DNA of 64,000 nucleotides. Source: Parcubacteria group bacterium GW2011_GWC1_36_108. Lineage in GTDB: Bacteria; Patescibacteriota; Minisyncoccia; Moranbacterales; GWC2-37-73. The position numbers were made by a program, and so were the translations under genes. This document shows, piece by piece, positions 43,550-63,718 of this stretch (the stretch's first letter is position 1; each line of letters opens with the position of its first letter). The stretch spans positions 26,235 to 90,234 of the forward strand of contig LBRD01000004.1 in assembly GCA_000991245.1 (NCBI GenBank). Direction: 5' to 3'. The notes under the pieces are model-generated. The model made no database searches, was not told where the DNA came from, and saw nothing but the letters and a program-made list of their open reading frames with translations.

Positions 43550-44170
43550 TTAATTTGCTGCCCAAACTTGAAATGTTGAACCAGTATCGCCAGAAGTATT
43601 TCCAAGATCTTCCCAATGACTTGAATTATTAAAATTAGGACCGCCATCTTTGCATTTTGTTTCACCTGTTGCATTATCAGTTCTACAACAAATAAGCTGA
43701 TTAGCAGCACTACCAAGAAAACATGAAAGCGCATAGCCAGTTCCTGCCGTTGCAGCCACTGCCACATTCACAGCTCTCACGGTATTGTTATACGTTCCGA
43801 CAGATTTAATGTTGGCAATTTCATTTTTATCAGCACTGCATCCAAGTGCAGTTCCACTAGTATTAAAAAAAGTCAGTTCATATGAAGAACCTGATGGTCC
43901 AACATCCGTGCCGGTAACTTTACCATCAGAACAACCCGTTCCAAACCCTGTAAATACTGTTGATATTGTTCCTTGGTTACTTAATTTCTTCAAAGCCAAC
44001 TGCACTCCGCTGTCCGCGGTTTGGAGTGATTGCATTGAAAATTCAGTGCCGCTTGCACCTTTTTTTTCAACAATAGCCACAACAGAAAGTGTTCCAGCAA
44101 TTGCAATCATCACAGAAATGATAACCAAGGAATACGCCAAGATTGAACCCTGTTTTTTTTCTTTGTTCAT
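43550..44170 (-). CDS. Gly/Thr/Ser-rich membrane-anchored secreted protein, possibly pilin-like
   Basis: The N-terminal KKQGSILAYSLVIISVMIAIAG has a hydrophobic helix after a Gly but lacks the canonical +5 Glu of type IV pilins. Several Cys pairs are present. Confidence 0.4.
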   Translation of the reverse strand: MNKEKKQGSILAYSLVIISVMIAIAGTLSVVAIVEKKGASGTEFSMQSLQTADSGVQLALKKLSNQGTISTVFTGFGTGCSDGKVTGTDVGPSGSSYELTFFNTSGTALGCSADKNEIANIKSVGTYNNTVRAVNVAVAATAGTGYALSCFLGSAANQLICCRTDNATGETKCKDGGPNFNNSSHWEDLGNTSGDTGSTFQVWAAN

Positions 44171-47458: not shown

Positions 47459-48328
47459 TCAAACACTTTTATGCTGTTTTTGTCTTTTTTTAATAGCATA
47501 TTTAATAATGTATTCGGCTGGATTTATTCCAGTTATTAATTTGAATTTTTCCCACTGTGGAGAGACATTAACTTCAATGACATAGGTTTTTCCTTCATAT
47601 TCAAACAGATCCACGCCCGCTATTTCATAGTCCATCGCTGCTGTTGATTCCAAGGCAACTTTTTTCATCTCTACGCTAACCTCTATTTTTTCAGCTTTGG
47701 TTCCACGAATATTGGATTTATATTGCCCTTCATTAATAAAACGTTGAAACCCACCGATAACTTCGCCACCGACAACAAAGATTCTAAAATCATTTACGAT
47801 TGGAAAATATTGTTGCGCTAAATATTCAGTTGTATTTTTTTCAAAAAATTCCAGCGCTTCGTTGGCTGTGTTTAATTTCTGAATCCCCCTACCCTTTCTT
47901 CCAAAAATCGGTTTAGCAATAATAGGAAATTCTACGTCTTCTGTTAACCTTTTCCATCCTTCAAAATTATTAGCTTGAAATGTTGCTGGATGATCGATAC
48001 CACATTCAAAAAGTCTTTTGGCTTGATGCATTTTTCCTCGCACATAACCGCCAGCGAGTGATTGTTCAATAACTATTTTATCATTATCTACCAGCATTTC
48101 AGCTAATAGCTGTGCTTCATAAATATGATTATTATATCCCCTGAAAATAACCACATCAAAATCGCAGATGTCCAACTCGCCACACATCGCTGCAAGATTG
48201 TCACCAATAGTTTCAAAAGTAATTTCCGAAAATTTACAGACTATTCCTTGATGACCAGCTTTTTCAATAGCATCAAGCAAATCTTGAGTGTTTTCAGTTA
48301 GTGAACCAATGATAATAAATTTCAACAT
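47459..48328 (-). CDS. RimK-like ATP-grasp amidoligase
   Basis: 289 aa. FPIIAKPIFGRKGRGI, FRIFVVGGEVIGG and GVDLFEYEGKTYVIEVNVSP follow the RimK order of ATP-grasp motifs. Confidence 0.7.
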   Translation of the reverse strand: MLKFIIIGSLTENTQDLLDAIEKAGHQGIVCKFSEITFETIGDNLAAMCGELDICDFDVVIFRGYNNHIYEAQLLAEMLVDNDKIVIEQSLAGGYVRGKMHQAKRLFECGIDHPATFQANNFEGWKRLTEDVEFPIIAKPIFGRKGRGIQKLNTANEALEFFEKNTTEYLAQQYFPIVNDFRIFVVGGEVIGGFQRFINEGQYKSNIRGTKAEKIEVSVEMKKVALESTAAMDYEIAGVDLFEYEGKTYVIEVNVSPQWEKFKLITGINPAEYIIKYAIKKRQKQHKSV

Positions 48329-48342
48329 ATTTTTAAATTATA

Positions 48343-49311
48343 TTAAGCAATGTTTTCAATAAAAGCATCAAAATCTTTCTGTTGTAATTCCTTATCGTTA
48401 AGCGCTTCGATCAAACAAAGGCCTGGAACAGAATTCATTTCAATAAAAAGTGGTTCACCTTTTTCGTTAAAAAAGAAATCCAAAGAATATTGAGCACGCG
48501 CAAACATTTTTAATTTTGCAGTAATTTTTTCTGTTACATCCAAAACACTTTGCGGTATTTTCTCAAGCGGAACACGTTTACTCGTTGCTCCCTGATGCAT
48601 ATTAGTAAACAGAGACCCTCCTTGAGCAATTCGAGAAAGAGCATAAAGTGGCTGGTGATTAATGTAAGTAATTCTAAGATCTGCCAATTCACCTTTTTCA
48701 GAAAATCCAGGAATACCATTTTCATTTTTAACAAATTCTTGTAACAGCATCGGATAAATAAACTTTTCTTTTAAAATAGTTTCTTTATTACCAATAACAA
48801 TACCAAATCCGCCAGAGCCCTGAAGAGGTTTGGCAACAATTTTTGATGTTTTTATTTTTTCAATTGCAATTTTCAGGTCATTTAAGTTCATTGCCACGAA
48901 TGTTTTCGGCATATATTCAGAAAACAAAGCGTACTGCGAAAGTTTACTATCAACCATGGCTCGAAAAAGCGGATTATTAAAAACGATTGAATTGCTGGCC
49001 ATAGCCATTTTTAAATCAAACAACTTATGCTCGCTAGAGCCAGGCGTCTTATCATAAATAAGATCAGCTGTGATTTCTTTTTCAACTCTTTGCCATTTGC
49101 CGCTCCTAAAAGCCCATGCCTTGATAAAAATATTTTTCTTGATATCATACCAATCCACACTTGCACGATACATTTGAATATTTTTTTCAAGCGCCATAGT
49201 GTGCCATTTTTCAAAAGCTCTTCTTGTTTCTTCGTACGATATTGGAATTTCCCTATCCCAATCATCGCCTGTATAAATAACAACTATGTTTTTACTTTTT
49301 TCGTTTTCCAT
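48343..49311 (-). CDS. ATP-grasp domain protein (second ligase of the cluster)
   Basis: 322 aa. IVAKPLQGSGGFGI, ADLRITYINHQPLYA and IEMNSVPG are ATP-grasp blocks. The gene is 14 bp from the upstream gene. Confidence 0.65.
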   Translation of the reverse strand: MENEKSKNIVVIYTGDDWDREIPISYEETRRAFEKWHTMALEKNIQMYRASVDWYDIKKNIFIKAWAFRSGKWQRVEKEITADLIYDKTPGSSEHKLFDLKMAMASNSIVFNNPLFRAMVDSKLSQYALFSEYMPKTFVAMNLNDLKIAIEKIKTSKIVAKPLQGSGGFGIVIGNKETILKEKFIYPMLLQEFVKNENGIPGFSEKGELADLRITYINHQPLYALSRIAQGGSLFTNMHQGATSKRVPLEKIPQSVLDVTEKITAKLKMFARAQYSLDFFFNEKGEPLFIEMNSVPGLCLIEALNDKELQQKDFDAFIENIA

Positions 49312-49322
49312 AAAATACTTTA

Positions 49323-50765
49323 TTAACTAACTTTATTCACATCAATTAAAAACTTTCCCAGATTTCTCCTACCGATGATAGCAGCATATTTAAGTTCATC
49401 TCTGGCGGCAATATTAACATTCGCATTTATTGCAAAGTTATCCATAACAAAAGTCATTTTTACTTTTGGCCTAAAAGACACACCGTTAGATGCATAGATT
49501 AAATCTATGTCATAAAGATCGCTGTGTTTATATTTATTTTTCAAGCCCTTAAGAATTTCTGGTCCTTCTTCTCTGGAAAATCCGTTTGGCAATTCAATTT
49601 TTTCAAAAAAATCCAAAACATCGCCATAGCCAAGCTGTCTAGCCATATCAATATCAATAGAAGTTGACATTGCACCCGTATCAATTTTGGCCTCAATTTC
49701 TATAGTTGCTTCATTTTTTCCAATAAATTTAACTTTTTCTACTGTGCCAATAACTTTTCGTCCAGAAATTTCTTCGACTTCTTCTTCAACTTCTCCTCCG
49801 AATAAATCTCTTCCTACGCGCACACCGCGCGCTGCTGTTTTTATTTTAAGACCCTTGATGCGCTCAAGTCTTTCTTTAAGACCACTGAGGTTTGCAACTT
49901 GAATAGCAAGACCCGGACGAGCATTGATTTCCAAAAAAACCGGACCGCGCTCGCGATCAATCGCAACATCAGCGCCCAAAAATCCCATCCCTGAAACTTC
50001 CTGCGCTTTTACAGCTAAAAGTAAAATATCTTTCCAATATGGAATTCGAATTCCTGAAAGAAGCATTCTGGTGCCTGGGACATAATCAATAATTTTTCCT
50101 TTACCCAAAACTGCAGTCGTGGTCACGCCTGAAGCTAAGTCAATTCCCACTCCGATACCTCCTTGCTGCAAATTAGCTTTTCCTCCAGATTCTTTTGTTG
50201 GAAGACGAAGCATCGCCATTACTGGTATATGATTAAAAACAATCACGCGGATATCAGGAATTCCTTTATATGCATACGGCTTAAAAAGTTTAAGCAAAGT
50301 CAAACGTTCTTCAAAAAAAGCAATGTCTGGCATATTAGCCAATGAAAATGCTCCATCCAAAATATTTAAAATATGACTCTTGATATCTTCCACTGTAACT
50401 TTGCTGCCATCAGCTTTAATCCAAACAGGCAACGGTATTTCATTTTCATCACTTACTAAAACTTTTCCACTATTTTTCTTTCTGCCATACACTACCATAA
50501 TTCCACCTCCGCCATATCCACGATTTGGCTTAAGCGCAAAAGAAGACGGCAAAGAAGACCAGTCGAAATTTTCCAATTCCTCGGCTGTTCTGATTTTTGC
50601 AAGCAATTTTGGCACAGGAATTCCACCTTTTTTAAGCATCCTCTTGCTTAAAATTTTATCGTCTGCCAATTTTTTTGCTTTTTTTCTATTGTATGGACGA
50701 ATGTAATCAAGGTTACGAGCATTCATGCCAAGCAACTTATTTCCATTCTTAAAAATTTCAAACAT
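49323..50765 (-). CDS. alpha-L-glutamate ligase-like ATP-grasp (ATPgrasp_ST) fused to a retropepsin-like Zn_protease domain
   Basis: The N-terminal LGMNARNLDYIRPYNRKKAKKLADDKILSKRML...GGIPVP matches my memory of the rimK-related alpha-L-glutamate-ligase family. The C-terminal ~150 aa with KIDTGAMSTSIDI (DTG motif) resembles the PF05618 putative ATP-dependent zinc protease. Confidence 0.65.
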   Translation of the reverse strand: MFEIFKNGNKLLGMNARNLDYIRPYNRKKAKKLADDKILSKRMLKKGGIPVPKLLAKIRTAEELENFDWSSLPSSFALKPNRGYGGGGIMVVYGRKKNSGKVLVSDENEIPLPVWIKADGSKVTVEDIKSHILNILDGAFSLANMPDIAFFEERLTLLKLFKPYAYKGIPDIRVIVFNHIPVMAMLRLPTKESGGKANLQQGGIGVGIDLASGVTTTAVLGKGKIIDYVPGTRMLLSGIRIPYWKDILLLAVKAQEVSGMGFLGADVAIDRERGPVFLEINARPGLAIQVANLSGLKERLERIKGLKIKTAARGVRVGRDLFGGEVEEEVEEISGRKVIGTVEKVKFIGKNEATIEIEAKIDTGAMSTSIDIDMARQLGYGDVLDFFEKIELPNGFSREEGPEILKGLKNKYKHSDLYDIDLIYASNGVSFRPKVKMTFVMDNFAINANVNIAARDELKYAAIIGRRNLGKFLIDVNKVS

Positions 50766-50775
50766 AAAAAAATTA

Positions 50776-50865
50776 TGTCATTCCGGACTCGATCCGGAAT
50801 CCCGAGCTTTAACGCACAAACCGTTATGCTACGAGAGATCCTGAAACAAATTCAGGATGACACAG
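50776..50865 (+). repeat. divergent GC-rich hairpin element related to copies A-C
   Basis: tgtcattccggactcgatccggaatcc hairpin plus atcctgaaacaaattcaggat hairpin. The ends TGTCATTCC and GGATGACACA form inverted termini. Confidence 0.5.
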
Positions 50866-50868
50866 TGA

Positions 50869-51534
50869 TTACTTTAAATTCTTCAGCACTTCCCTAAAAC
50901 GAAAATATTCATTCAAGCGCAAGCCATCCCATTTCCCTAAAAAGATATTAATTGGAATTGTAATTAAAATCAGCCATGGGAAAGCTACAATGCCTTTTAT
51001 CAATGCTGGCCAACTTGCCAAATAATATCCAACAAGAGAAATTACCAATGTTTCCACCGCCAAAATGAGAGCTGCGCGATTTCCCTTTTCAATTTGAGCT
51101 GCCACAAATTTTTCCACGATCGTAATCATAATCAAAATTGGGAAAATTGAAACTGCAGCTAAACCGGTTCGCTGCATTGCTCCTCCAAAACTAAGCAGCA
51201 TCAAAATTGAAAGTGCAATAATGCTAAGTGTGATGGCCACGCGCGGCAGATACAAAATACGAAGACCTTTCAGTGCAAAGCGCAGCAGCATTCCAACCAA
51301 AATCACCACAATAAAAATAAGAACGCCGTAGCGAAGTTGTGGTACAGCCAAGAAAGCAAAGGTCACGATCGCAGGCGTATAAATACCAAAAGCCTTAATT
51401 CCGATTACCTGACGAAAAAAAGCGATCAACGTTACCACAATTGGCAACATTAAAAGCAAGATAACCGTATCAAGCGGCACACCTTGTGCAATAAAATATT
51501 TAATGAGAGGACTGATGTTTTCCATAATTTTCAT
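50869..51534 (-). CDS. 7-TM membrane protein (candidate 7TM partner of the ATP-grasp operon)
   Basis: Seven hydrophobic helices were counted by eye. It is the first gene of the operon with three ATP-grasp genes immediately downstream. The start is chosen at MKIM, and the upstream MLYVTCS codons coincide with the ATGTTACATG box. Confidence 0.55.
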   Translation of the reverse strand: MKIMENISPLIKYFIAQGVPLDTVILLLMLPIVVTLIAFFRQVIGIKAFGIYTPAIVTFAFLAVPQLRYGVLIFIVVILVGMLLRFALKGLRILYLPRVAITLSIIALSILMLLSFGGAMQRTGLAAVSIFPILIMITIVEKFVAAQIEKGNRAALILAVETLVISLVGYYLASWPALIKGIVAFPWLILITIPINIFLGKWDGLRLNEYFRFREVLKNLK

Positions 51535-51600
51535 AGAGCATGTAACATATAACATGCAACATTAACTCAAAACAATAAGATTACAAATCAAAAAAACGAA

Positions 51601-54284: not shown

Positions 54285-54320
54285 ACCGTCTCGCGCAAAC
54301 TACGCGAGACGGTTTTTTTA
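54285..54320. terminator. bidirectional terminator
   Basis: accgtctcgcgcaaactacgcgagacggttttttta. Confidence 0.6.
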
Positions 54321-56369
54321 TTTGAAAATAAAATTAAAAATCATATTCAATCCTGAATTAATTTCAGAAAAAATATTTTTCAAAAATAAAATTGCATAAT
54401 GCTCTTTTTCTGGGATTTGTGGGGTGAAAAAATATATGCCATCAACTTCCCGCACAGCCCGTGTCTCATTCACACGTGGAACACCTTTTAATAATTCAAT
54501 TCTGATATCGTCATTACTGGCTGAAATTAATTTATTTTCTCTCTTAACCTCAACCAACGCAACTGCTTCTTCATAATCACTTTTACCAGTGTTTTGAATT
54601 TCTGATGACAGATGACTGACAGCGGATAACACAATACTTGTTTCTTTTTGATTACCGATTGCTGATGACTGATGACTTTCTGCTTTTTCACCGCCAATCC
54701 ACCCCCAACCACTTTTTATTTTTTCATACACTTCGCCCTCTTTGATCCCCTCAACTTTTTTATATTTCACTTCATATGCAACTTTTCCATCAGGATATCT
54801 GAGCTGAATTTTAGATTTGGTGTTGTTAAGTGTGAAACTCGAAACATCACTCCTGATTTCCTTGGATTTATCTTTTTTAATAATCACATCTTCTCCAATA
54901 GGATGATTAATAAATTTTTTCCAGCCAGTTGCAATACTCCAACCACTCAAATTTATTTTATTTTTTGATTTGTTTTGCACGGTAATATATTCAACTCCCG
55001 TGTCAGCGCCAGTAGGATTAGCGCTGATGGCAATGATTTTTACTTCCGGATGCGGAAATTTTTTAACTTCCACAACAAAATTTTGCAAAACATCTTCGCT
55101 GCCATCAGACAATTTCACGGAGCCATTATATGTGCCAACATTTTCATATTTATGTCTGGTTTTTGCCAAAGAACTTTTGTGTCCATCTCCAAAATCCCAG
55201 CTTATTTTTATTTTATCCCCATCTCTGTCGCCGCTTGAGACAGAAAAATCAGCATAAACATTAGCAAAAACATCTTCATCGATTTTTACTTTTCCATACG
55301 GTTGGCTATTAAAAATGTTTTCTTTCCCCTCTGTTAAAAATTGACTCCAAGACCAAACGCTCCCATCAAAATTATAAGAACGTCCCTTTTTCGCACTGCC
55401 TTCATAGCTAACACTAAAAACAGGAACCAGATCGATAGGGTTATATAGTCCAAGAAATTCTCCCTGCGTGTCATTAAGTGCTAGTGTACATTTTTTGTCA
55501 GCATCATTTTTCAAAGTCAAAAATCTTGAGATTGTGGGATCAATAATATTCCCAGTCAAAGCGCAAGTTTTTCCTGCTCTGTCTTTTAAATACCAACCTT
55601 CCAAATTTTCAGTTTTATCGCTTGAACTATAAAGTTCCACAAATTCTTCCAGCCCAGAGTTTTTCAAAGGAGCAGGAAAAATTTCATTGATAATTATTCT
55701 GTCTGAATATGTTTTTGATTCTGATTCGTTTTTTTCTTCTTCCTCATCTTCCTCTTTTATGCATAATGCTAATTCTTCAGTATTTATAATGGTTGAATTT
55801 TTTGGAAAATAATCAGAAACTACCAAAAAATTATCCTCTACATCTTTTTTTAGAACTTTAGACACCATTAGATTTTCAGAATATAGATGTGATCCAGAAA
55901 AAGAATGTGCATTATTTCCCCATGTTATCGAATCAATAATTTCATCTTCATCAACAAATGCAATGCTATAATTTTCAGAAAGCGTAGCTCCAGTTGATTG
56001 ATCTGATTTGATTGCATTAGCAAAATCAGCGTTACCCCAAAGAAAATACCCCTTAGCACTAATAGTTGTATTCGCAGATAAAACTTTTATAGATGATTCT
56101 GTTCCAGAATTTGTCCTTTTTCTTAATTTCCAACCAGATATATCAATTTCCTCACAACTTGTATTATATATTTCTATAAAATCATCATTAGCGTTAATTC
56201 CCTTGATTTGTACTGCGCTTATTATGGCTGCATTGTCAGCCTTGCAACTATTATTAACAAAAACAAAAAGCGCCACAAAGAGCAGCACTAATGGTGTTTG
56301 ATATTTAAATGATTTTTTAATCCGTAACTGAAAAAAGTCACGGACTTTTTGTTTTTGTCTTGATTTCAC
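54318..56369 (-). CDS. large secreted protein with three lamin-tail-like (LTD) domains and a PKD domain
   Basis: Signal peptide. Three copies of the LTD-type pattern: DFIEIYNTS...ISGWKL, EFVELYSSS...LEGWYL and EYITVQNKS...LSGWSI. WDFGDGH is the PKD signature. Confidence 0.65.
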   Translation of the reverse strand: MKSRQKQKVRDFFQLRIKKSFKYQTPLVLLFVALFVFVNNSCKADNAAIISAVQIKGINANDDFIEIYNTSCEEIDISGWKLRKRTNSGTESSIKVLSANTTISAKGYFLWGNADFANAIKSDQSTGATLSENYSIAFVDEDEIIDSITWGNNAHSFSGSHLYSENLMVSKVLKKDVEDNFLVVSDYFPKNSTIINTEELALCIKEEDEEEEKNESESKTYSDRIIINEIFPAPLKNSGLEEFVELYSSSDKTENLEGWYLKDRAGKTCALTGNIIDPTISRFLTLKNDADKKCTLALNDTQGEFLGLYNPIDLVPVFSVSYEGSAKKGRSYNFDGSVWSWSQFLTEGKENIFNSQPYGKVKIDEDVFANVYADFSVSSGDRDGDKIKISWDFGDGHKSSLAKTRHKYENVGTYNGSVKLSDGSEDVLQNFVVEVKKFPHPEVKIIAISANPTGADTGVEYITVQNKSKNKINLSGWSIATGWKKFINHPIGEDVIIKKDKSKEIRSDVSSFTLNNTKSKIQLRYPDGKVAYEVKYKKVEGIKEGEVYEKIKSGWGWIGGEKAESHQSSAIGNQKETSIVLSAVSHLSSEIQNTGKSDYEEAVALVEVKRENKLISASNDDIRIELLKGVPRVNETRAVREVDGIYFFTPQIPEKEHYAILFLKNIFSEINSGLNMIFNFIFK

Positions 56370-56517
56370 CCCGACACCTGTTAAGGATTACTTGATAAAC
56401 AAAAAATAATCTGAATTACAAATATAACAATTAAAAAACGCTAACTTTTTACTATTTCATCCTTTACAGGTGTGGGGGTAAACCCGAATTTTATTCCCCC
56501 ACTCTGCGAAATAAAAA

Positions 56518-57096
56518 CTACTCTTCTAATTTTTCTTTTAACATTTCCCCAAAATTTTCCGTTTTCTTAGCTTCAGCTTTTTTCTGAAGTTCCATAATAA
56601 TATTTTTCACATGATACGGATCTGACACTGTGCGAAAAACAAATTCGCTTTCTTCTCCAGCGGTTTGCACTCTCACATCTCCATAATTGATAACTGTTGG
56701 CAAAAATCCAACCACTTCGGTTGTGATATCTTGTATCTTTGCAAATCGCAGCTCGCTCACACTGCGAGTGAACATCCCCTTTTGCTCAATATTTATAATT
56801 CTCTCAGTTGTGATGATCCAAATGTCGAAATAATAATCCACCCAAATTAAAAAAGAATAAATCCAAAGAGCTAACACAAAAAAGTTTTCCATAAAGGCAA
56901 CTACTGGCTTATATTGTCCCTTAAACATTTCTGGAAAAAATGCTGGTGCCCAAGAAAGACCAGCTATAAAAATTCCACCAATCAAAAACACGAGAAAGAA
57001 TTGCGTTAGCAAATAAAACCAGTTGCGATGAAGCACCTTCACGATCGACTCGGTGCCATTAAGATCTTTAAAGTGATATTTTGAAAATCCATCCAT
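56518..57096 (-). CDS. bacterial PH-domain (bPH_2/YdbT-like) membrane protein
   Basis: Two TM helices followed by a ~100-aa domain with a bPH_2-like pattern. Confidence 0.55.
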   Translation of the reverse strand: MDGFSKYHFKDLNGTESIVKVLHRNWFYLLTQFFLVFLIGGIFIAGLSWAPAFFPEMFKGQYKPVVAFMENFFVLALWIYSFLIWVDYYFDIWIITTERIINIEQKGMFTRSVSELRFAKIQDITTEVVGFLPTVINYGDVRVQTAGEESEFVFRTVSDPYHVKNIIMELQKKAEAKKTENFGEMLKEKLEE

Positions 57097-57651: not shown

Positions 57652-58704
57652 TTAAACCAGTTTTCTTTGGTTGTCTTCGGGCATATCAATTCCCATGTGA
57701 GCATAACCATGCTCGGTTACCATTCTTCCGCGTGGAGTTCTTGTTAAAAATCCCAATTGAATCAAGAATGGTTCGTACACATCTTCAATTGTTTCGATTT
57801 CTTCAGAAGTGGCAGCAGCAATAGTGGAAATTCCAACTGGTCCACCATTAAATTTTTTAATAATAGTTTCCAAAATAAAACGATCCGTCGGTTCAAGTCC
57901 AAGCTGATCAACATCCATCATCTCAAGAGCCTTTCTTGCAATCGCACTATCAATTGTTTGATGCTCATTGATTTGAGCATAATCCCTAACACGCTTAATA
58001 ATTCTATTTCCAACGCGAGGAGTTTTTCTGCTTGAAACCGCAATTTCTTTTGCTCCACTATCCTCAAGCGGTATTCCCAGAATTTTACCAGAGCGATGAA
58101 TGATACTTTTCATCTCATCTTCGTTATAAAATTCAAGTCGATGAATTGCGCCAAAACGATTTCGCAGCGGATTAGAAAGTGCTCCTAATCTGGTTGTGGC
58201 TCCAATAAGCGTGAATTTTGGCAAATCAAGCTGAAGTGTTCGCGCCGATGGTCCTTTTCCAATAATCACGTCCAATTTATAATCCTCCATAGCAGGATAA
58301 AGAACTTCTTCAATCAATTTATTGAGCCGATGAATTTCATCTATAAATAGAACATCTCCGTCTTGCAGGTTAGTCAAAATTGACCCAAGATCGCCAACTC
58401 TTTCAATTGCTGGTCCAGAAGTTACCTTAATATTAACACCCATTTCATTAGCGATAATATGAGCCAGGGTTGTCTTTCCAAGTCCAGCTGGGCCATAAAG
58501 CAGCACGTGCTCAATAGATTCTCCTCGTTTTTTGGCAGCATCAATAAACATCTGCAAATTTTTGCGGATTTTTTGTTGTCCGACATACTCACTCAAACGC
58601 TGCGGTCTAAGTGTTGTGTCTAAAACAATATCATCTTCTTGTTCTTCAGAGGTAGTAATCATTTCATTGAGCATGGAACATAAATCATGGAGCAAAACTT
58701 CCAC
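57652..58704 (-). CDS. ruvB: Holliday junction helicase RuvB
   Basis: [32 protein letters not shown], the sensor region and the C-terminal winged helix. The true start is probably an internal Met (MLNEM or MITTSEEQ). Confidence 0.9.
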
Positions 58705-59212: not shown

Positions 59213-59215
59213 ATT

Positions 59216-59400
59216 TTGTATTTTGTATTTCCCTACAACCTAATTCCTAAAACCTATAATTTGTATTTTGTATTTACCTACAACCTAATTCCTAAAACCT
59301 ATAATTTGTATTTTGTATTTACCTACAACCTAATTCCTAAAACCTATAATTTTGTATTTTTGTATTTCCCTACGACCTAATTCCTAGAACCTAAAACCTG
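59216..59400. repeat. 45-bp minisatellite x4
   Basis: Unit is ttgtattttgtatttacctacaacctaattcctaaaacctataat. Units are contiguous with no spacers, and the array abuts the pilB stop codon. Confidence 0.8.
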
Positions 59401-59402
59401 CC

Positions 59403-62400
59403 CTATATTACTCTTTCCACCTCCTCTAAACTTGTTTCTCCTTCGAGAACTTTGAGCATTCCGTCTTGTTCCATTGAAATCATTCCGTTTTCAATGGCTT
59501 TGTCGCGGATTTGGGAAGATGAAGCACTTTGAGTGATGAGTTCTTCAATATCGCGATCAACCACTAGCACTTCGCTGATTGTTGTGCGGCCCTTGTATCC
59601 AATATTGTTGCATTTATCACAACCCTTGGCTTCATAAACTTTTTCAAAAGATGGGACTGCGATTCCAGATTTTTCAGAAACATTTCCCAATATTTTTTTC
59701 ATTTTTGAAATCTCACTTATAGTCAAATGCCTTTCAGTTTTGCAATCACAGAGCTTGCGCACGAGTCTTTGTGCCATTAGCGCGTTAACGGCTGTTGCAA
59801 GGTCATCTGAGCGCACTCCCATATTAATCAAACGCTGAACTCCGCCTGCTGCATCATTTGTGTGAAGCGTGGAAAGAATTGAATGTCCTGTAAGAGCGGC
59901 TTGAATGGCAATGTTGGCCGTTTCCTCGTCGCGAATTTCGCCAATCATCATAATGTCAGGATTTTGACGAAGAAGTGCCCGCAGCGCTGTTGGGAAAGTA
60001 TACCCTTCTTTGTCATCAACCGAGGTCTGCAAAACTCCATCCAATTGATATTCAATCGGATCTTCAACTGTGATGATTTTCACTTCGGGATTATTAAGAA
60101 CTTTCAGCGCGCTATACAATGTCGTGGTTTTTCCGCTGCCGGTTGGACCAGTTGTCAAAAAGACACCGTTTGGCTTTTTAATTTCACTAATAATTTTTTC
60201 CAAATTTTGCTTTCTAATCCCCAACTTTTCCAAATCAAGAGCAACCGATGATTTGTTTAAAAGTCTCATTACCACAGTTTCGCCATAGCCACCCAGAATT
60301 ATCGAAACACGCACATCAACTTTTGTGTCTGTGATATTTCCAAATGGTTTGTCTAAAGAAATTGAAAAACGAGAATCCATAACACCGCCGCGCACCTCCG
60401 TTGAAAAGCCACTCAAAAATTTGATGCTGCCCAATAAGCTTGGATATTCATTAAGAGGAATTTCTGCAATCGTTTGAAGAATTCCATCCATACGATAACG
60501 AATTTTCACGCTTTTTTCTTCCGGTTCAATGTGAATATCTCCCACATTAAGCAGTAAGCTGCTAGCAAAAATATATTTAGCACTGCTTTTTTGATTTGAT
60601 TTTTCAATTAGGTTTCTGAGTGATTCCACTGGCTCTAAGTTTTGTGAAACCAAAAGCATATCCTCCTCGGTAATATCGATTGCTCGAGACATTGATTGTG
60701 ACATCAATTTTTCATAAATTTCCTCCAGAAATTCAGTTTGTCCTGTTGCGCGCCAAACTTCTTCCATTGAAGTCAGCCCTTCAATAGCTTTTAGAATTCC
60801 GTCTTGCGCCATTGTGATCATTCCGTCTTCCAAAGCAGTTTGTGCAATTTCTCTTTCTCCTCCCATTTCCAAAATTAACTTTTCAATATTCTCAGAAATT
60901 GTGAGCACCTCAAAAATTCCGATTCGCCCCTTAAATCCTAGTCCATGACATTTGTCGCAACCGACAGGACGATACAATTTTTCAATAGTCTTGGGAATTT
61001 CAAGTTTTGCCTTAGGAGAAATAATCGACAAGATTTTTTTAACACTGTCAGAAGTTTCTCGCGCTGGAACATATTCTTCTTTGCAATGTTGGCAAAGCTT
61101 TCGCACAAGACGTTGTGCAATAAAACAATTTACTGATGGTGCAATTAAATTGGGTTTAACACCAAGTTCAATAAAGCGTGGGATGGAAGCAGGTGCATTG
61201 TTGGTGTGCAGTGTGGAAAGCACAAGATGTCCAGTGAGTGCCGCATTAACTGAAATGTCTGCCGTTTCATCATCACGAATTTCGCCAACCAAAATAACAT
61301 CAGGATCTTGACGCACCACTGCGCGAAGGCCTTCTGCAAATGTATAGTTGCGATCCTTGGCAACTTGTGTTTGAGAAATGTTTTTTACTTCATATTCAAT
61401 TGGGTCTTCAATCGTGATAATCTTAACTCCCGCAACATTAAGCTTGTTTACCAAGGCATACAGTGTGGTGGTTTTTCCGGATCCCGTTGGCCCTGTTGTT
61501 AAAATCATTCCGTGAGGTTTGGCAATTTCTCTTTGCACATTTTCATATGCCAAGCCGCGCAAACCCAAATCCTCAACCGAAAGTAAAATATCAGCTTGAC
61601 TCAAAAGCCTCATTACCACCGATTCTCCGTGACTTCCTGGGATAATATTTGTTCTGACATTTATTTTTCCATTTTCCATATCAATGGAAAAATGACCGTC
61701 TTGCGCAATGTCGCGAATATTTATTTTCATTTTTCCCATCATCTTAATGCGGGACAAAATGAAATGATATGTGTCATTTGGAAATCTTCCAACATCTTGC
61801 AAAATTCCATCAATACGAAAACGCATTCTGACCTCTTCTTCTTGCGGTTCAAAGTGAATATCACTGGCCTTCATTTTCACGGCGCCAGCCATAATAATTG
61901 AAATGATTTGAGTGGTTGGAATTTCACGAATACGCTTTTTCAAATCAAGCATACTGCCAAATTCTTTCTCAAATTTTTCCAAATCCTCCCCACTAAGCGT
62001 GATTTGCATAGCTTCCAAATTCTCCAAAAGCGGAATGTCCGCATATCTTTTCCAGATTTTTTCCAAAGAAGAATTTGAAATCACATACAAATGAATCGTC
62101 CAACCATTTTCGTTTTTAAGACTTTCAATGTGATCAAGAGTTTTTTTGTTTGCTGGATCAATAATACCCATTCGTAATTCCTTGCCAGCTTTTTGAAAAA
62201 CGCAAATTTGAAATTCGCGCGAGTTTTCCTCGCTGATTGTGCGCATATCCTCTGCGCCCACAGGAAAAATATTTAGATCGACATAAGAAAGATCATATTC
62301 GCTCGCCAACTGTGCTGCTCGTTCTTCTTCAGACTCTCCTCGCATATGCTGAAGAAGCTTGCCCGCCTGCTCATCCTTGTCAGTATTATGAATCAATTGT

Positions 62401-62420
62401 TTATGCGAAACTTTTACCAT
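59403..62420 (-). CDS. pilB: tandem-fused type II/IV secretion (PilB/GspE-family) ATPase, two complete ATPase modules in one 1005-aa polypeptide
   Basis: There are two Walker A motifs (both TGPTGSGKTTTLY). There are two Asp and His boxes (GEIRDDETADISVNAALTGHLVLSTLHTN and GEIRDEETANIAIQAALTGHSILSTLHTN). There are two tetracysteine motifs (CQHCK...GCDKCHGLG and CDCK...GCDKCNNIG). An N-terminal T2SSE_N-like domain is present. The two halves are ~50 percent identical by eye. Confidence 0.85.
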   Translation of the reverse strand: MVKVSHKQLIHNTDKDEQAGKLLQHMRGESEEERAAQLASEYDLSYVDLNIFPVGAEDMRTISEENSREFQICVFQKAGKELRMGIIDPANKKTLDHIESLKNENGWTIHLYVISNSSLEKIWKRYADIPLLENLEAMQITLSGEDLEKFEKEFGSMLDLKKRIREIPTTQIISIIMAGAVKMKASDIHFEPQEEEVRMRFRIDGILQDVGRFPNDTYHFILSRIKMMGKMKINIRDIAQDGHFSIDMENGKINVRTNIIPGSHGESVVMRLLSQADILLSVEDLGLRGLAYENVQREIAKPHGMILTTGPTGSGKTTTLYALVNKLNVAGVKIITIEDPIEYEVKNISQTQVAKDRNYTFAEGLRAVVRQDPDVILVGEIRDDETADISVNAALTGHLVLSTLHTNNAPASIPRFIELGVKPNLIAPSVNCFIAQRLVRKLCQHCKEEYVPARETSDSVKKILSIISPKAKLEIPKTIEKLYRPVGCDKCHGLGFKGRIGIFEVLTISENIEKLILEMGGEREIAQTALEDGMITMAQDGILKAIEGLTSMEEVWRATGQTEFLEEIYEKLMSQSMSRAIDITEEDMLLVSQNLEPVESLRNLIEKSNQKSSAKYIFASSLLLNVGDIHIEPEEKSVKIRYRMDGILQTIAEIPLNEYPSLLGSIKFLSGFSTEVRGGVMDSRFSISLDKPFGNITDTKVDVRVSIILGGYGETVVMRLLNKSSVALDLEKLGIRKQNLEKIISEIKKPNGVFLTTGPTGSGKTTTLYSALKVLNNPEVKIITVEDPIEYQLDGVLQTSVDDKEGYTFPTALRALLRQNPDIMMIGEIRDEETANIAIQAALTGHSILSTLHTNDAAGGVQRLINMGVRSDDLATAVNALMAQRLVRKLCDCKTERHLTISEISKMKKILGNVSEKSGIAVPSFEKVYEAKGCDKCNNIGYKGRTTISEVLVVDRDIEELITQSASSSQIRDKAIENGMISMEQDGMLKVLEGETSLEEVERVI

Positions 62421-62578
62421 ACTAAGTCATATAACATGAAACATATAGCATGTAACATGAATACAAAAAAATTGTTTTTATTTTTATTTACAAAGTTATT
62501 ATACCCCAAAAATGCTTTTTGGACAAAAGAAAAACGACCAGTAAGAACTGCTCGCTTAGTTATTATCAAAAAAAATTA

Positions 62579-63718
62579 TTACACAATCAATCCTGTGCGG
62601 AGTTTTTCGACGATGTGCTGTCCTGCTTCGGTGGTGTCTCCAGATTGGAGTGAAAATTCGCAAACATCTCCAATTGCTTTGGCTTCAAGAATCTCAGCAA
62701 CTTTTTTCAACTGATCATTATTAATGCACTTAATCACGCCGCGCACTTGCCCAGGGGTTTCGTTATAAAGCACCATAAAAATTTTGCCAGCAGAATAATT
62801 TTCTTTAATTTTATCCAAAATAAAAGGTACGTCACTCGGTTTTGAGCGGCTCTGCACAAAATCCTCCAAAAACACGGGCGCCCAAGCCAAAGAAATTTCA
62901 TCTTCCCAATACAATCTCGCCATCACACGACCCCAAAGTTTCAAAAGATGAAGCGGCTGTGTCTTATAAAGATAGCGAATAATTTTTTGTTGATCAGCTC
63001 CCTTTGTCATCAGCATTGCACCAATTTGCAATGATTTTGGCGAGGTGTTTTTTTTCTGAAAACTGTTAGTTGCATCAATAATTCCAGTGAGCAAACTTTC
63101 CGCCATATTCTCATCAATATTTTTTTCATTTATTTTAGAAAACAAATCCGCCACCACTTCAGATGTCGAAGACGCAGTAATATCAACAATATTTACTTGT
63201 CCAAAATTATCATTCTCCGTGTGATGATCAATATTAACAACAGGAACCTCATAAAAAATATCAGGATTTTCTTCATACACCTTTCCGAGTGATTCCTTGT
63301 CGGGACTGCCAAGCACGATTACTAAATCATATTTGAATTTTGCAGGAATAAAAGAAAAGTCGCGCGGATCAATTGAACCTTTTTCTGGAGTAATAAAAAT
63401 TCGCAATTCATCTTCAACTCTTTCTGTGCGCACGTTAGTAATCTTGTTGAACTTTGTGTTAAATGCCAACACAAAATCTCTTGCGCCTGCCAACGAATCC
63501 ATCAAATCTTCCGGTTTTGTCAAAAATGAAAAACGCTGCAAATAATTTTCATCACTTGGAACTACAACTGTTGCTTCAATATTATTTTTTTTCAAAAAGA
63601 AATAAGTTGCCCACGCAGAGCCAACCGCATCGCCAGAAAAATCTTGCGCCATAAAGATAAGAACGTGTTTGGCGTTTTTCAAAACATTATCTAATTGTTG
63701 CGCGAGATCTAAACTCAT
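62579..63718 (-). CDS. DHH-family phosphoesterase (NrnA-like)
   Basis: The DHH motif NIDHHTEN and the DHHA1-like C-terminal region (GGGH-type replaced by GQH) indicate an oligoribonuclease/pAp phosphatase-like enzyme. Confidence 0.65.
   Translation of the reverse strand: MSLDLAQQLDNVLKNAKHVLIFMAQDFSGDAVGSAWATYFFLKKNNIEATVVVPSDENYLQRFSFLTKPEDLMDSLAGARDFVLAFNTKFNKITNVRTERVEDELRIFITPEKGSIDPRDFSFIPAKFKYDLVIVLGSPDKESLGKVYEENPDIFYEVPVVNIDHHTENDNFGQVNIVDITASSTSEVVADLFSKINEKNIDENMAESLLTGIIDATNSFQKKNTSPKSLQIGAMLMTKGADQQKIIRYLYKTQPLHLLKLWGRVMARLYWEDEISLAWAPVFLEDFVQSRSKPSDVPFILDKIKENYSAGKIFMVLYNETPGQVRGVIKCINNDQLKKVAEILEAKAIGDVCEFSLQSGDTTEAGQHIVEKLRTGLIV

Follow-up and report, generated by a model that had tools for sequence, protein, structure and literature searches.

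The window analysed here is a 64,000-nucleotide stretch of Parcubacteria group bacterium GW2011_GWC1_36_108 (contig LBRD01000004.1, positions 26,235 to 90,234 of the forward strand). It contains a gene for a 1005-residue ATPase of the PilB/GspE family (59403..62420, minus strand) in which a complete ATPase unit occurs twice in one polypeptide. The chain consists of a single N1 domain (T2SSE_N) followed by the series linker, N2D domain and C-terminal domain (CTD) twice over, as delimited by Pfam, BLASTP and hhalign. As the best overall explanation we lean towards a duplicated PilB/GspE motor of a Patescibacteria paralogue, termed class S below, that would work as a three-chain ring on a filament platform. 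Automated annotation names such proteins "GspE/PulE family protein" or "PilB". The literature on candidate phyla radiation pili and secretion ATPases, as far as it was covered, describes no tandem-fused PilB/GspE; coverage was incomplete, so that an earlier description is possible. A natural linked-subunit version of a PilB-type ring motor has apparently gone unreported.

Domain architecture of the tandem ATPase

An earlier sequence-only reading of this DNA had proposed a single uninterrupted frame that encodes an N-terminal T2SSE_N-like domain and two full ATPase modules, and these three features hold. The open reading frame (ORF) has 1005 codons, starts with ATG, has no internal stop and ends at the stop codon 59403..59405; it yields two PF00437 stretches and one PF05157 stretch. 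The sole N1 domain (T2SSE_N, Pfam MshEN) spans residues 42-126 (62043..62297, on the minus strand like every feature of the gene) and matches PF05157 with 25.4 bits against a cut-off of 23.1. Column entropy marks it as the least conserved portion of the protein. Inspection of the N-terminus by eye revealed no RLGxx(L/V/I)(L/V/I)xxG-type motif that would speak for a c-di-GMP-binding MshEN domain. Linker 1 (residues 127-175, 61896..62042) is helical in the AlphaFold2 model and connects N1 to ATPase module 1 (M1; N2D plus CTD, residues 176-560, 60741..61895), which was bounded by the phmmer envelope, the BLASTP self-alignment and structural matches. Linker 2 (residues 561-616, about 56 amino acids, 60573..60740) joins the modules and opens with the conserved motif G560..F564 L565 E566..Y569..L572 M573, whose columns are invariant. 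It is partly helical, and the predicted local distance difference test (pLDDT) score of the model is low at residues 568-578. Module 2 (M2; N2D plus CTD, residues 617-1005, 59406..60572) was bounded by the phmmer envelope, the self-alignment and the NCBIfam alignment of half 2.

Both modules carry the full motif set of the superfamily. The Walker A sequence GPTGSGKT lies at residues 310-317 in M1 (61470..61493), where it is invariant across 63 close and 20 deep homologues, and at residues 758-765 in M2 (60126..60149), where the G..GKTTT core is invariant in the family. The Asp box (EDPIE) is found at 338 and 786, the GEIRD motif at 379 and 827, and the His box (TGH) at 396 and 844. The four-cysteine cluster of M1 is C443-x2-C446...C488-x2-C491 (60948..61094) and that of M2 is C891-x-C893...C934-x2-C937 (59610..59750), and all eight cysteines are invariant in the family. 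A tetracysteine motif in each module had been claimed, and the four invariant cysteines are present in both; the first pair of M2 is CxC and not CxxC. The modules are 47% identical across 389 residues (E = 3e-125, BLASTP self-alignment), and the two PF00437 stretches sum to 751.9 bits, the best spanning profile positions 7-370 of 370.

The repeated unit is linker, N2D and CTD. A separate N1E-like subdomain had been assigned to each module, and this assignment is rejected. Linker 2 corresponds by homology to the stretch between N1 and N2 in module 1 (hhalign probability 97.8%, E = 9e-13), comparison of N1 with the inter-unit linker detected no similarity (z = 0.6; hhalign probability 0.2%), and half 2 enters the PilB model at position 136, past N1. 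N1 is present once. The in-frame Met codons 573, 577 and 587, from which a separate M2 could in principle be translated, have no Shine-Dalgarno sequence at a suitable distance.

Family membership, conservation and unit number

The gene is not an artefact, because 22 contigs of independent assemblies, among them NCBI GCA_000990595.1 and several groundwater assemblies from ENA, encode the identical protein, and because it has hundreds of homologues of about 1000 residues. The junction (~60.7 kb) is intact on all 22 contigs, and its motif is conserved. Among 5.8 billion proteins searched, more than 120 clusters of about 1005 residues are 66-93% identical to the window protein, and a second search seeded with a 42%-identical member added about 100 clusters at 39-57% identity. 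Nearly all tandem homologues are 980-1030 residues long; the question whether relatives are fused as well is thus answered by hundreds of proteins at 39-93% identity. Their named sources are Candidatus Moranbacteria/Moraniibacteriota, the Parcubacteria group, Paceibacterota and the Patescibacteria group. A merger by sequencing, assembly or frameshift error is rejected on these grounds. An HMMER scan of 1.84 billion representatives gave only about 15 full-length two-unit tandems versus 56,598 superfamily clusters at 50% identity, with unit number inspected in the best 150 representatives by score to a two-unit query. The two-unit architecture is rare overall, yet it forms a sizeable, old family.

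Membership of the T2SSE superfamily (PF00437) is established by a full-length profile match and by the motifs of both units, and the four-cysteine cluster in both units (a putative zinc site) together with the one N1 places the protein in the GspE/PilB assembly subgroup. This cluster is absent from PilT-type and VirB11-type relatives, and the PilT/PilU retraction ATPases also lack N1. The best NCBIfam models for the whole protein are GspE and PilB, with two matches each. The first and second halves score 487.6 and 407.6 bits on TIGR02538 (PilB; cut-off 675.65), 481.9 and 419.8 bits on TIGR02533 (GspE; cut-off 630.25; the best model for half 2) and 193.3 and 158.7 bits on TIGR01420 (PilT/PilU; cut-off 319.1), below the cut-off in every case. 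The whole protein reaches 883.7 bits on TIGR02538 because the scores of the two units add up. Compared separately, both halves are PilB/GspE-like and neither lacks conserved catalytic residues. Separate adjacent pilB-pilT genes and neighbouring pilB paralogues are common elsewhere, so the protein might in principle be two such genes merged by error or a fusion of an extension with a retraction ATPase (PilB-PilT). This explanation is hardly credible in view of the 22 identical contigs, the same-length homologues, the conserved junction and the PilB/GspE-like scores of both halves. The PilB-PilT fusion is specifically rejected by scores that are far higher on PilB/GspE than on PilT for both halves and by the cysteine cluster that both carry.

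Conservation was assessed in 63 close homologues and in 20 deep homologues reaching down to 39% identity. Invariant in each unit in both sets are the Walker A Gly, Lys and Thr, the Asp-box Glu, Pro and Glu, the GEIRD Glu, the His-box Thr-Gly-His...His, the RxR arginines of the N2 subdomain and the four cysteines. Distant members read GPTS[AS]GKT at the M2 Walker A, which still fits the GxxxxGK[ST] P-loop. Column entropy is alike in M1 and M2, and the variable parts are N1 and linker 2. Both units are very probably competent catalysts, that is, they are predicted from these residues to bind and hydrolyse ATP. One unit could instead be a degenerate regulatory pseudo-ATPase, so that the pair would have three active and three inactive sites in the manner of F1 alpha/beta. 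M2 is a little more divergent than M1 (mean neighbour-joining distance 0.85 versus 0.73, with slightly higher entropy in the M2 CTD) and stands farther than M1 from single-unit proteins by the same distances, and an unrelated tandem protein described below (P0147) has a dead first unit with the Walker A Lys replaced by Thr. The Walker A Lys, Asp-box Glu, Walker B Glu, His-box His and arginines of both units are nonetheless invariant down to 39% identity, which makes a pseudo-ATPase highly improbable.

The gene belongs to a group of loci that lie apart from pilus operons. Patescibacteria loci were sorted by tblastn with TsaE, DHH, RuvB, bPH_2, PilT and PilC. Class S, a group defined here, comprises ATPase loci with TsaE/DHH upstream and/or RuvB downstream and with neither pilT nor pilC; class T comprises those with pilT and/or pilC adjacent. 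The window gene lies between DHH and RuvB and falls in the class-S clade. Class S includes members from Moraniibacteriota, Paceibacterota, and Doudna-, Falkow-, Nealson-, Wildermuth- and Staskawiczbacteria. In the module-level neighbour-joining tree the class-S single units, all M1 and all M2 form one clade apart from the operon PilBs (489/500 bootstraps). The class-S block reads TsaE in one direction, then DHH, ATPase, RuvB and bPH_2 in the other; these are housekeeping genes and not a pilus operon. A Paceibacterota locus (L015) encodes a single-unit ATPase of 569 residues in the order PolA, TsaE, DHH, ATPase, RuvB, bPH_2, the same as in the window. The closed Nealsonbacteria genome CP179888.1 has a canonical operon HisKA-RR-PilB(582 aa)-PilC-pilins-PilM-PilN and another Nealsonbacteria genome (L040) carries a class-S gene; therefore both paralogues coexist at the level of the lineage. 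By position in the tree and locus type, the window gene is not a pilus-operon PilB but a phylogenetically distinct orphan paralogue. Class-S ATPase genes belong to the vertically inherited core of genomes of about 1 Mb and represent a second paralogue outside the pilus operon.

A scan of GTDB species representatives gave at least 80 loci, a sample and not a census, and among the matches listed there was only one fused tandem, from Moraniibacteriota. Long matches outside Patescibacteria in this sample were rejected as tandems; they were separate pilB-pilT-pilC genes or two unfused pilB genes (Omnitrophota). The Omnitrophota locus L083 (9941-13375) has two adjacent PilB-like genes 3 bp apart, each with its own stop codon and with products of 577 and 567 residues, an unfused layout from which a fusion would start.

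The number of ATPase units differs among class-S proteins. Five of them (L038-L040, L045, L048) lack N1 and are 433-450 residues long; they represent one repeat unit, because they start about 55-70 residues (median ~60) before the SDIH motif. In the main tandem family M1 and M2 form separate groups with parallel internal structure in the neighbour-joining tree, and these separate, mirroring groups point to one old duplication. P0130 and P0131 are, as judged from the tree, independent and younger duplications inside class S: their sister units are 56% identical (499/500 bootstraps) and 74% identical (500/500), respectively. P0036 (1460 residues, L008 10001-14383) has three complete T2SSE units and lies directly downstream of a DHH gene, with ruvB about 5 kb upstream. 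In the tree the middle unit of P0036 pairs with the third one inside the M2 type, at 240/500 bootstraps. These data show that unit number at the class-S locus varies between 1, 2 and 3 and that duplication recurred independently, in at least two further class-S lineages and once outside class S. The sequence-only reading had inferred an old fusion and not an assembly duplication. The age is upheld by the M1 and M2 groups and the artefact is dismissed by the 22 contigs; the single-unit L015 orthologue in the same synteny and the three-unit relative make an internal tandem duplication of the linker, N2D and CTD at a fixed locus a better description of the origin than the joining of two different pilus ATPases.

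Long T2SSE proteins of other kinds were also encountered. P0147, a two-unit protein of 1047 residues outside class S and the Patescibacteria clade, is an independent duplication (479/500 bootstraps). Its first unit is degenerate, with a Walker A of GPTGSGTT (Lys to Thr) and an altered Asp box, and its N-terminal region of about 230 residues resembles GspF/PilC cytoplasmic domains by eye. P0152, P0183, P0186, P0216, P0230, P0234 and P0267 are single-unit proteins of 711-821 residues with C-terminal extensions of 150-250 residues that have no ATPase similarity; some cluster near class-S modules in the neighbour-joining tree.

Proposed ring assembly and relation to known motors

Among solved structures the best sequence matches are PilB proteins (Geobacter metallireducens/sulfurreducens 5TSH, 5TSG, 6OLJ and 5ZFR; Myxococcus 3JC8; E ~1e-106). 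Each unit resembles PilB with a template modelling (TM) score of 0.81-0.88 and 38-42% identity, and the first 560 residues share the N1, N2D and CTD order, the motifs and the four-cysteine cluster. Known PilB has one unit per chain and forms a homohexamer, whereas a second complete unit without N1 follows here; the gene also differs in lying outside a pil operon, in having halves under the TIGR02538 cut-off and in belonging to a separate Patescibacteria clade. GspE/EpsE (Vibrio 1P9R, 4KSR, 4PHT) shares the superfamily, the motifs and the zinc-binding tetracysteine at a TM score of about 0.8. It differs from the present protein, which has tandem units, halves below the equivalog cut-off and no GspL, GspF or other type II secretion genes nearby. 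Patescibacteria have no outer-membrane secretin. Thermus thermophilus PilF (6F8L, 5IT5, 5OIU; core TM score 0.87) is likewise a long PilB-type ATPase (~900 residues) made through internal domain repetition, and it is the nearest precedent for such a protein. PilF has repeated N-terminal GSPII/N1 domains and one ATPase core, in agreement with the single stretch matched in the PDB search, whereas here the ATPase core is repeated and N1 is single. Foldseek against the PDB aligned one unit per match, to the cores of Thermus PilF, Geobacter PilB and Vibrio EpsE (TM scores 0.8-0.88, target-normalised), and neither the PDB sequence search nor the Foldseek search returned a solved chain spanning both units. 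The single-unit class-S orthologues (L015, 569 residues; L038-L040, L045 and L048, 433-450 residues) share the clade and the TsaE/DHH/RuvB synteny and have one unit, not two.

The model that we propose starts from a tandem duplication of the linker-N2D-CTD unit inside the Patescibacteria-specific class-S paralogue. Three chains would form one six-unit ring with alternating M1 and M2 and with three N1 domains in total, and two chains of the three-unit relative P0036 would suffice for such a ring. The ring would be a PilB-type motor, and the PilC/GspF-type platform on which it would act would belong to a type IV filament machine whose genes lie elsewhere in the genome. In the solved hexamers of PilB, PilT and GspE (5TSH, 6OLJ, 4KSR) the N2D of one subunit (n) packs on the CTD of its neighbour (n+1) and thereby builds the ring. 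Because of this packing, covalent neighbours within one ring are the simplest outcome. By analogy with these hexamers, an in-ring trimer of dimers is modestly favoured; the sequence-only reading had suggested such a hexamer, in which the covalent link would enforce asymmetry. Action on type IV filament machinery, judged from homology, has about an even chance of being correct.

The units could instead be arranged as a stacked double ring, in which six chains would place an M1 ring on an M2 ring with 12 ATPase units, and the three-unit relative would form three tiers. KaiC, ClpB, p97 and NSF also have a duplicated P-loop ATPase in each chain and form six-fold rings. The likeness is one of analogy, since they belong to other families, and in each of them six chains build two stacked rings, whereas a single three-chain ring would be favoured here. 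Tandem P-loop duplications in other ring families, such as KaiC and type II AAA+ proteins, typically stack, and the partly helical linker of 56 residues is long enough for either geometry. The N2D-CTD packing between ring neighbours in the solved hexamers favours one ring, however, and, since only one face of a ring touches the membrane platform, a second tier would have no access to it. The copy numbers 2 and 3, seen among the best 150 representatives listed with numbers above three not specifically sought, both divide six, as a single six-unit ring would require. On balance a stacked arrangement is unlikely.

Several results weigh against the single-ring filament motor. Copy numbers 2 and 3 are equally compatible with stacked rings. 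The AlphaFold2 model (63-sequence alignment; mean pLDDT 73.8) has acceptable domains whose mutual arrangement is undefined, and at a predicted TM score of 0.44 it lends support to neither the in-ring nor the stacked form. The trees are neighbour-joining only, and the M2 clade of the main family has only 59% bootstrap support. Neither half alone passes the curated PilB or GspE equivalog cut-offs. Pfam searches found no PilC/T2SSF, PilM/N/O, prepilin peptidase (pilD), PilT or N-methyl pilin in the 64-kb window and its flanks, which agrees with and extends the sequence-only reading that no pilC, pilM or pilin gene is adjacent; pil genes are also absent within 10 kb of the ATPase gene in eight related loci. 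At these loci the ATPase is thus not part of a type IV pilus or type II secretion gene system. Because no pil genes are nearby, the tie to a filament machine is one of homology. Class S may have another role because Parcubacteria can own a canonical operon with its own PilB.

Such a role would mean that the class-S ATPase, whether single or tandem, serves a non-pilus, non-secretion process, for example nucleic-acid uptake or processing, and that the duplication tunes that machine. The gene lies outside type IV pilus operons throughout, in a block with TsaE, a DHH phosphoesterase, RuvB, YebC, RuvC, PolA and Fpg. Its clade is distinct from operon PilB, some class-S members lack N1, the halves score below both equivalog cut-offs, and canonical operons with their own PilB are present in Parcubacteria. 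The neighbours, on the other hand, are housekeeping genes whose order is kept by descent. Adjacency is weak evidence of function because the order is inherited, DHH is missing in several loci and a promoter-like site precedes the ATPase gene. Every sequence and fold feature, including the zinc-cysteine cluster, is that of an assembly-type PilB/GspE, and every member of that subgroup characterised so far is a motor of type IV filament assembly. We regard a non-pilus role as improbable.

A bolder extension of the three-chain ring is that class S is a separate, Patescibacteria-wide motor in which selection repeatedly turned a homohexamer into an obligate hetero-ring of linked, specialised and active units, 2 x 3 here and 3 x 2 in the three-unit relative, with independent re-duplications elsewhere. 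We consider it rather doubtful. If true, class S would provide the first PilB-type motor found in nature with covalently linked units. The machine that it drives might then be a filament or a nucleic-acid-handling apparatus not yet described, and the number of N1 docking domains would be both reduced and fixed.

PilB/GspE motors are thought to run by ATP-state changes that travel round the homohexamer. In other ring ATPases, position-specific mutants required engineered covalent linking of subunits. The class-S proteins offer natural linked dimers and trimers of a PilB-type motor in which both units are strongly constrained, and M1-only or M2-only mutants would give 3+3 patterns. In the proposed ring the ratio of N1 to ATPase units would be fixed at 3:6 (or 2:6), which bears on the matching of ring and platform. 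Patescibacteria are tiny and host-dependent, and type IV filaments are considered central to their attachment and DNA uptake.

Locus and neighbouring genes

The ATPase gene is flanked by a DHH-family gene upstream (379 residues, 62579..63718, minus strand) and by ruvB downstream (57652..58704, minus strand; Pfam RuvB_N/AAA_lid_4/WHD_RuvB). The DHH protein has a Pfam DHH match and a weak NrnA-like match of 48 bits against a cut-off of 350. On the DHH flank the neighbours are joined by TsaE, PolA and Fpg; the other flank holds bPH_2, an LTD/PKD protein, YebC, RuvC, ATP-grasp genes, PBP and RuvA. A candidate sigma-70-like promoter, TTGTCC-N17-TATAAT (62498..62526, minus strand), has 10/12 matches and lies 78 nt ahead of the ATG, within the 158 bp that separate the DHH gene from the ATPase gene; sigma-70-like sites in the region are not more numerous than expected by chance, and the site is no stronger than a candidate. 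The window contains no other T2SSE-type P-loop ORF.

The neighbourhood is conserved to different degrees among relatives. In all four contigs listed among the 22 with the identical protein the DHH gene is directly upstream, and ruvB is downstream wherever the contig reaches that far. The DHH gene is the commonest same-strand neighbour of the ATPase gene in relatives. It adjoins the ATPase gene in L001-L004, L008-L011, L014-L016, L038, L039, L045 and L048 and is absent in L017, L020, L021 and L040; the upstream gene is weakly similar to DHH in L012 and unrelated to it in L013. Downstream ruvB, either direct or past a few inserted genes, is found in most class-S loci, and it is on the other side of the ATPase gene in L008 and L016. 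The DHH-ATPase-ruvB block also surrounds P0114 (68% identical) and P0125 (40-42%). P0384 (46%) has TsaE upstream, ruvB downstream and a weakly DHH-like gene two positions upstream, and P0412 (45%) has a different neighbourhood with none of the block genes adjacent. The candidacy of DHH as an obligatory operon partner is weakened by its absence from several class-S loci and by the promoter-like site between DHH and the ATPase gene.

A pilin-like gene had been pointed out at 43.5 kb. The 206-residue ORF in question (43550-44170, minus strand) lies between ruvA and a FemAB-family gene and starts MNKEKKQGSILAYSLVIISVMIAIAG. It has a hydrophobic N-terminal helix but neither a G-F-T-L-x-E prepilin motif nor a Pfam match, and a motif scan of the window found no canonical prepilin leader.

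The gap of about 700 bp between the ATPase gene and ruvB contains a repeat array in which the 45-bp unit TTTGTATTTTGTATTTACCTACAACCTAATTCCTAAAACCTATAA occurs 3.9 times at 95% identity (59215-59393), beginning 10 bp past the ATPase stop. Rfam gave no match over the array, and no minus-strand terminator-like site was found after the ATPase stop. The bPH_2 membrane protein and the large LTD/PKD-domain protein that follow ruvB (54318-57096, minus strand) recur at almost every class-S locus of Moranbacteria and their relatives. Three ATP-grasp/RimK-like genes and a 7TM_transglut membrane protein adjoin ruvC (47459-51555, minus strand), an arrangement that relatives keep even where ATPase identity falls to about 40%.

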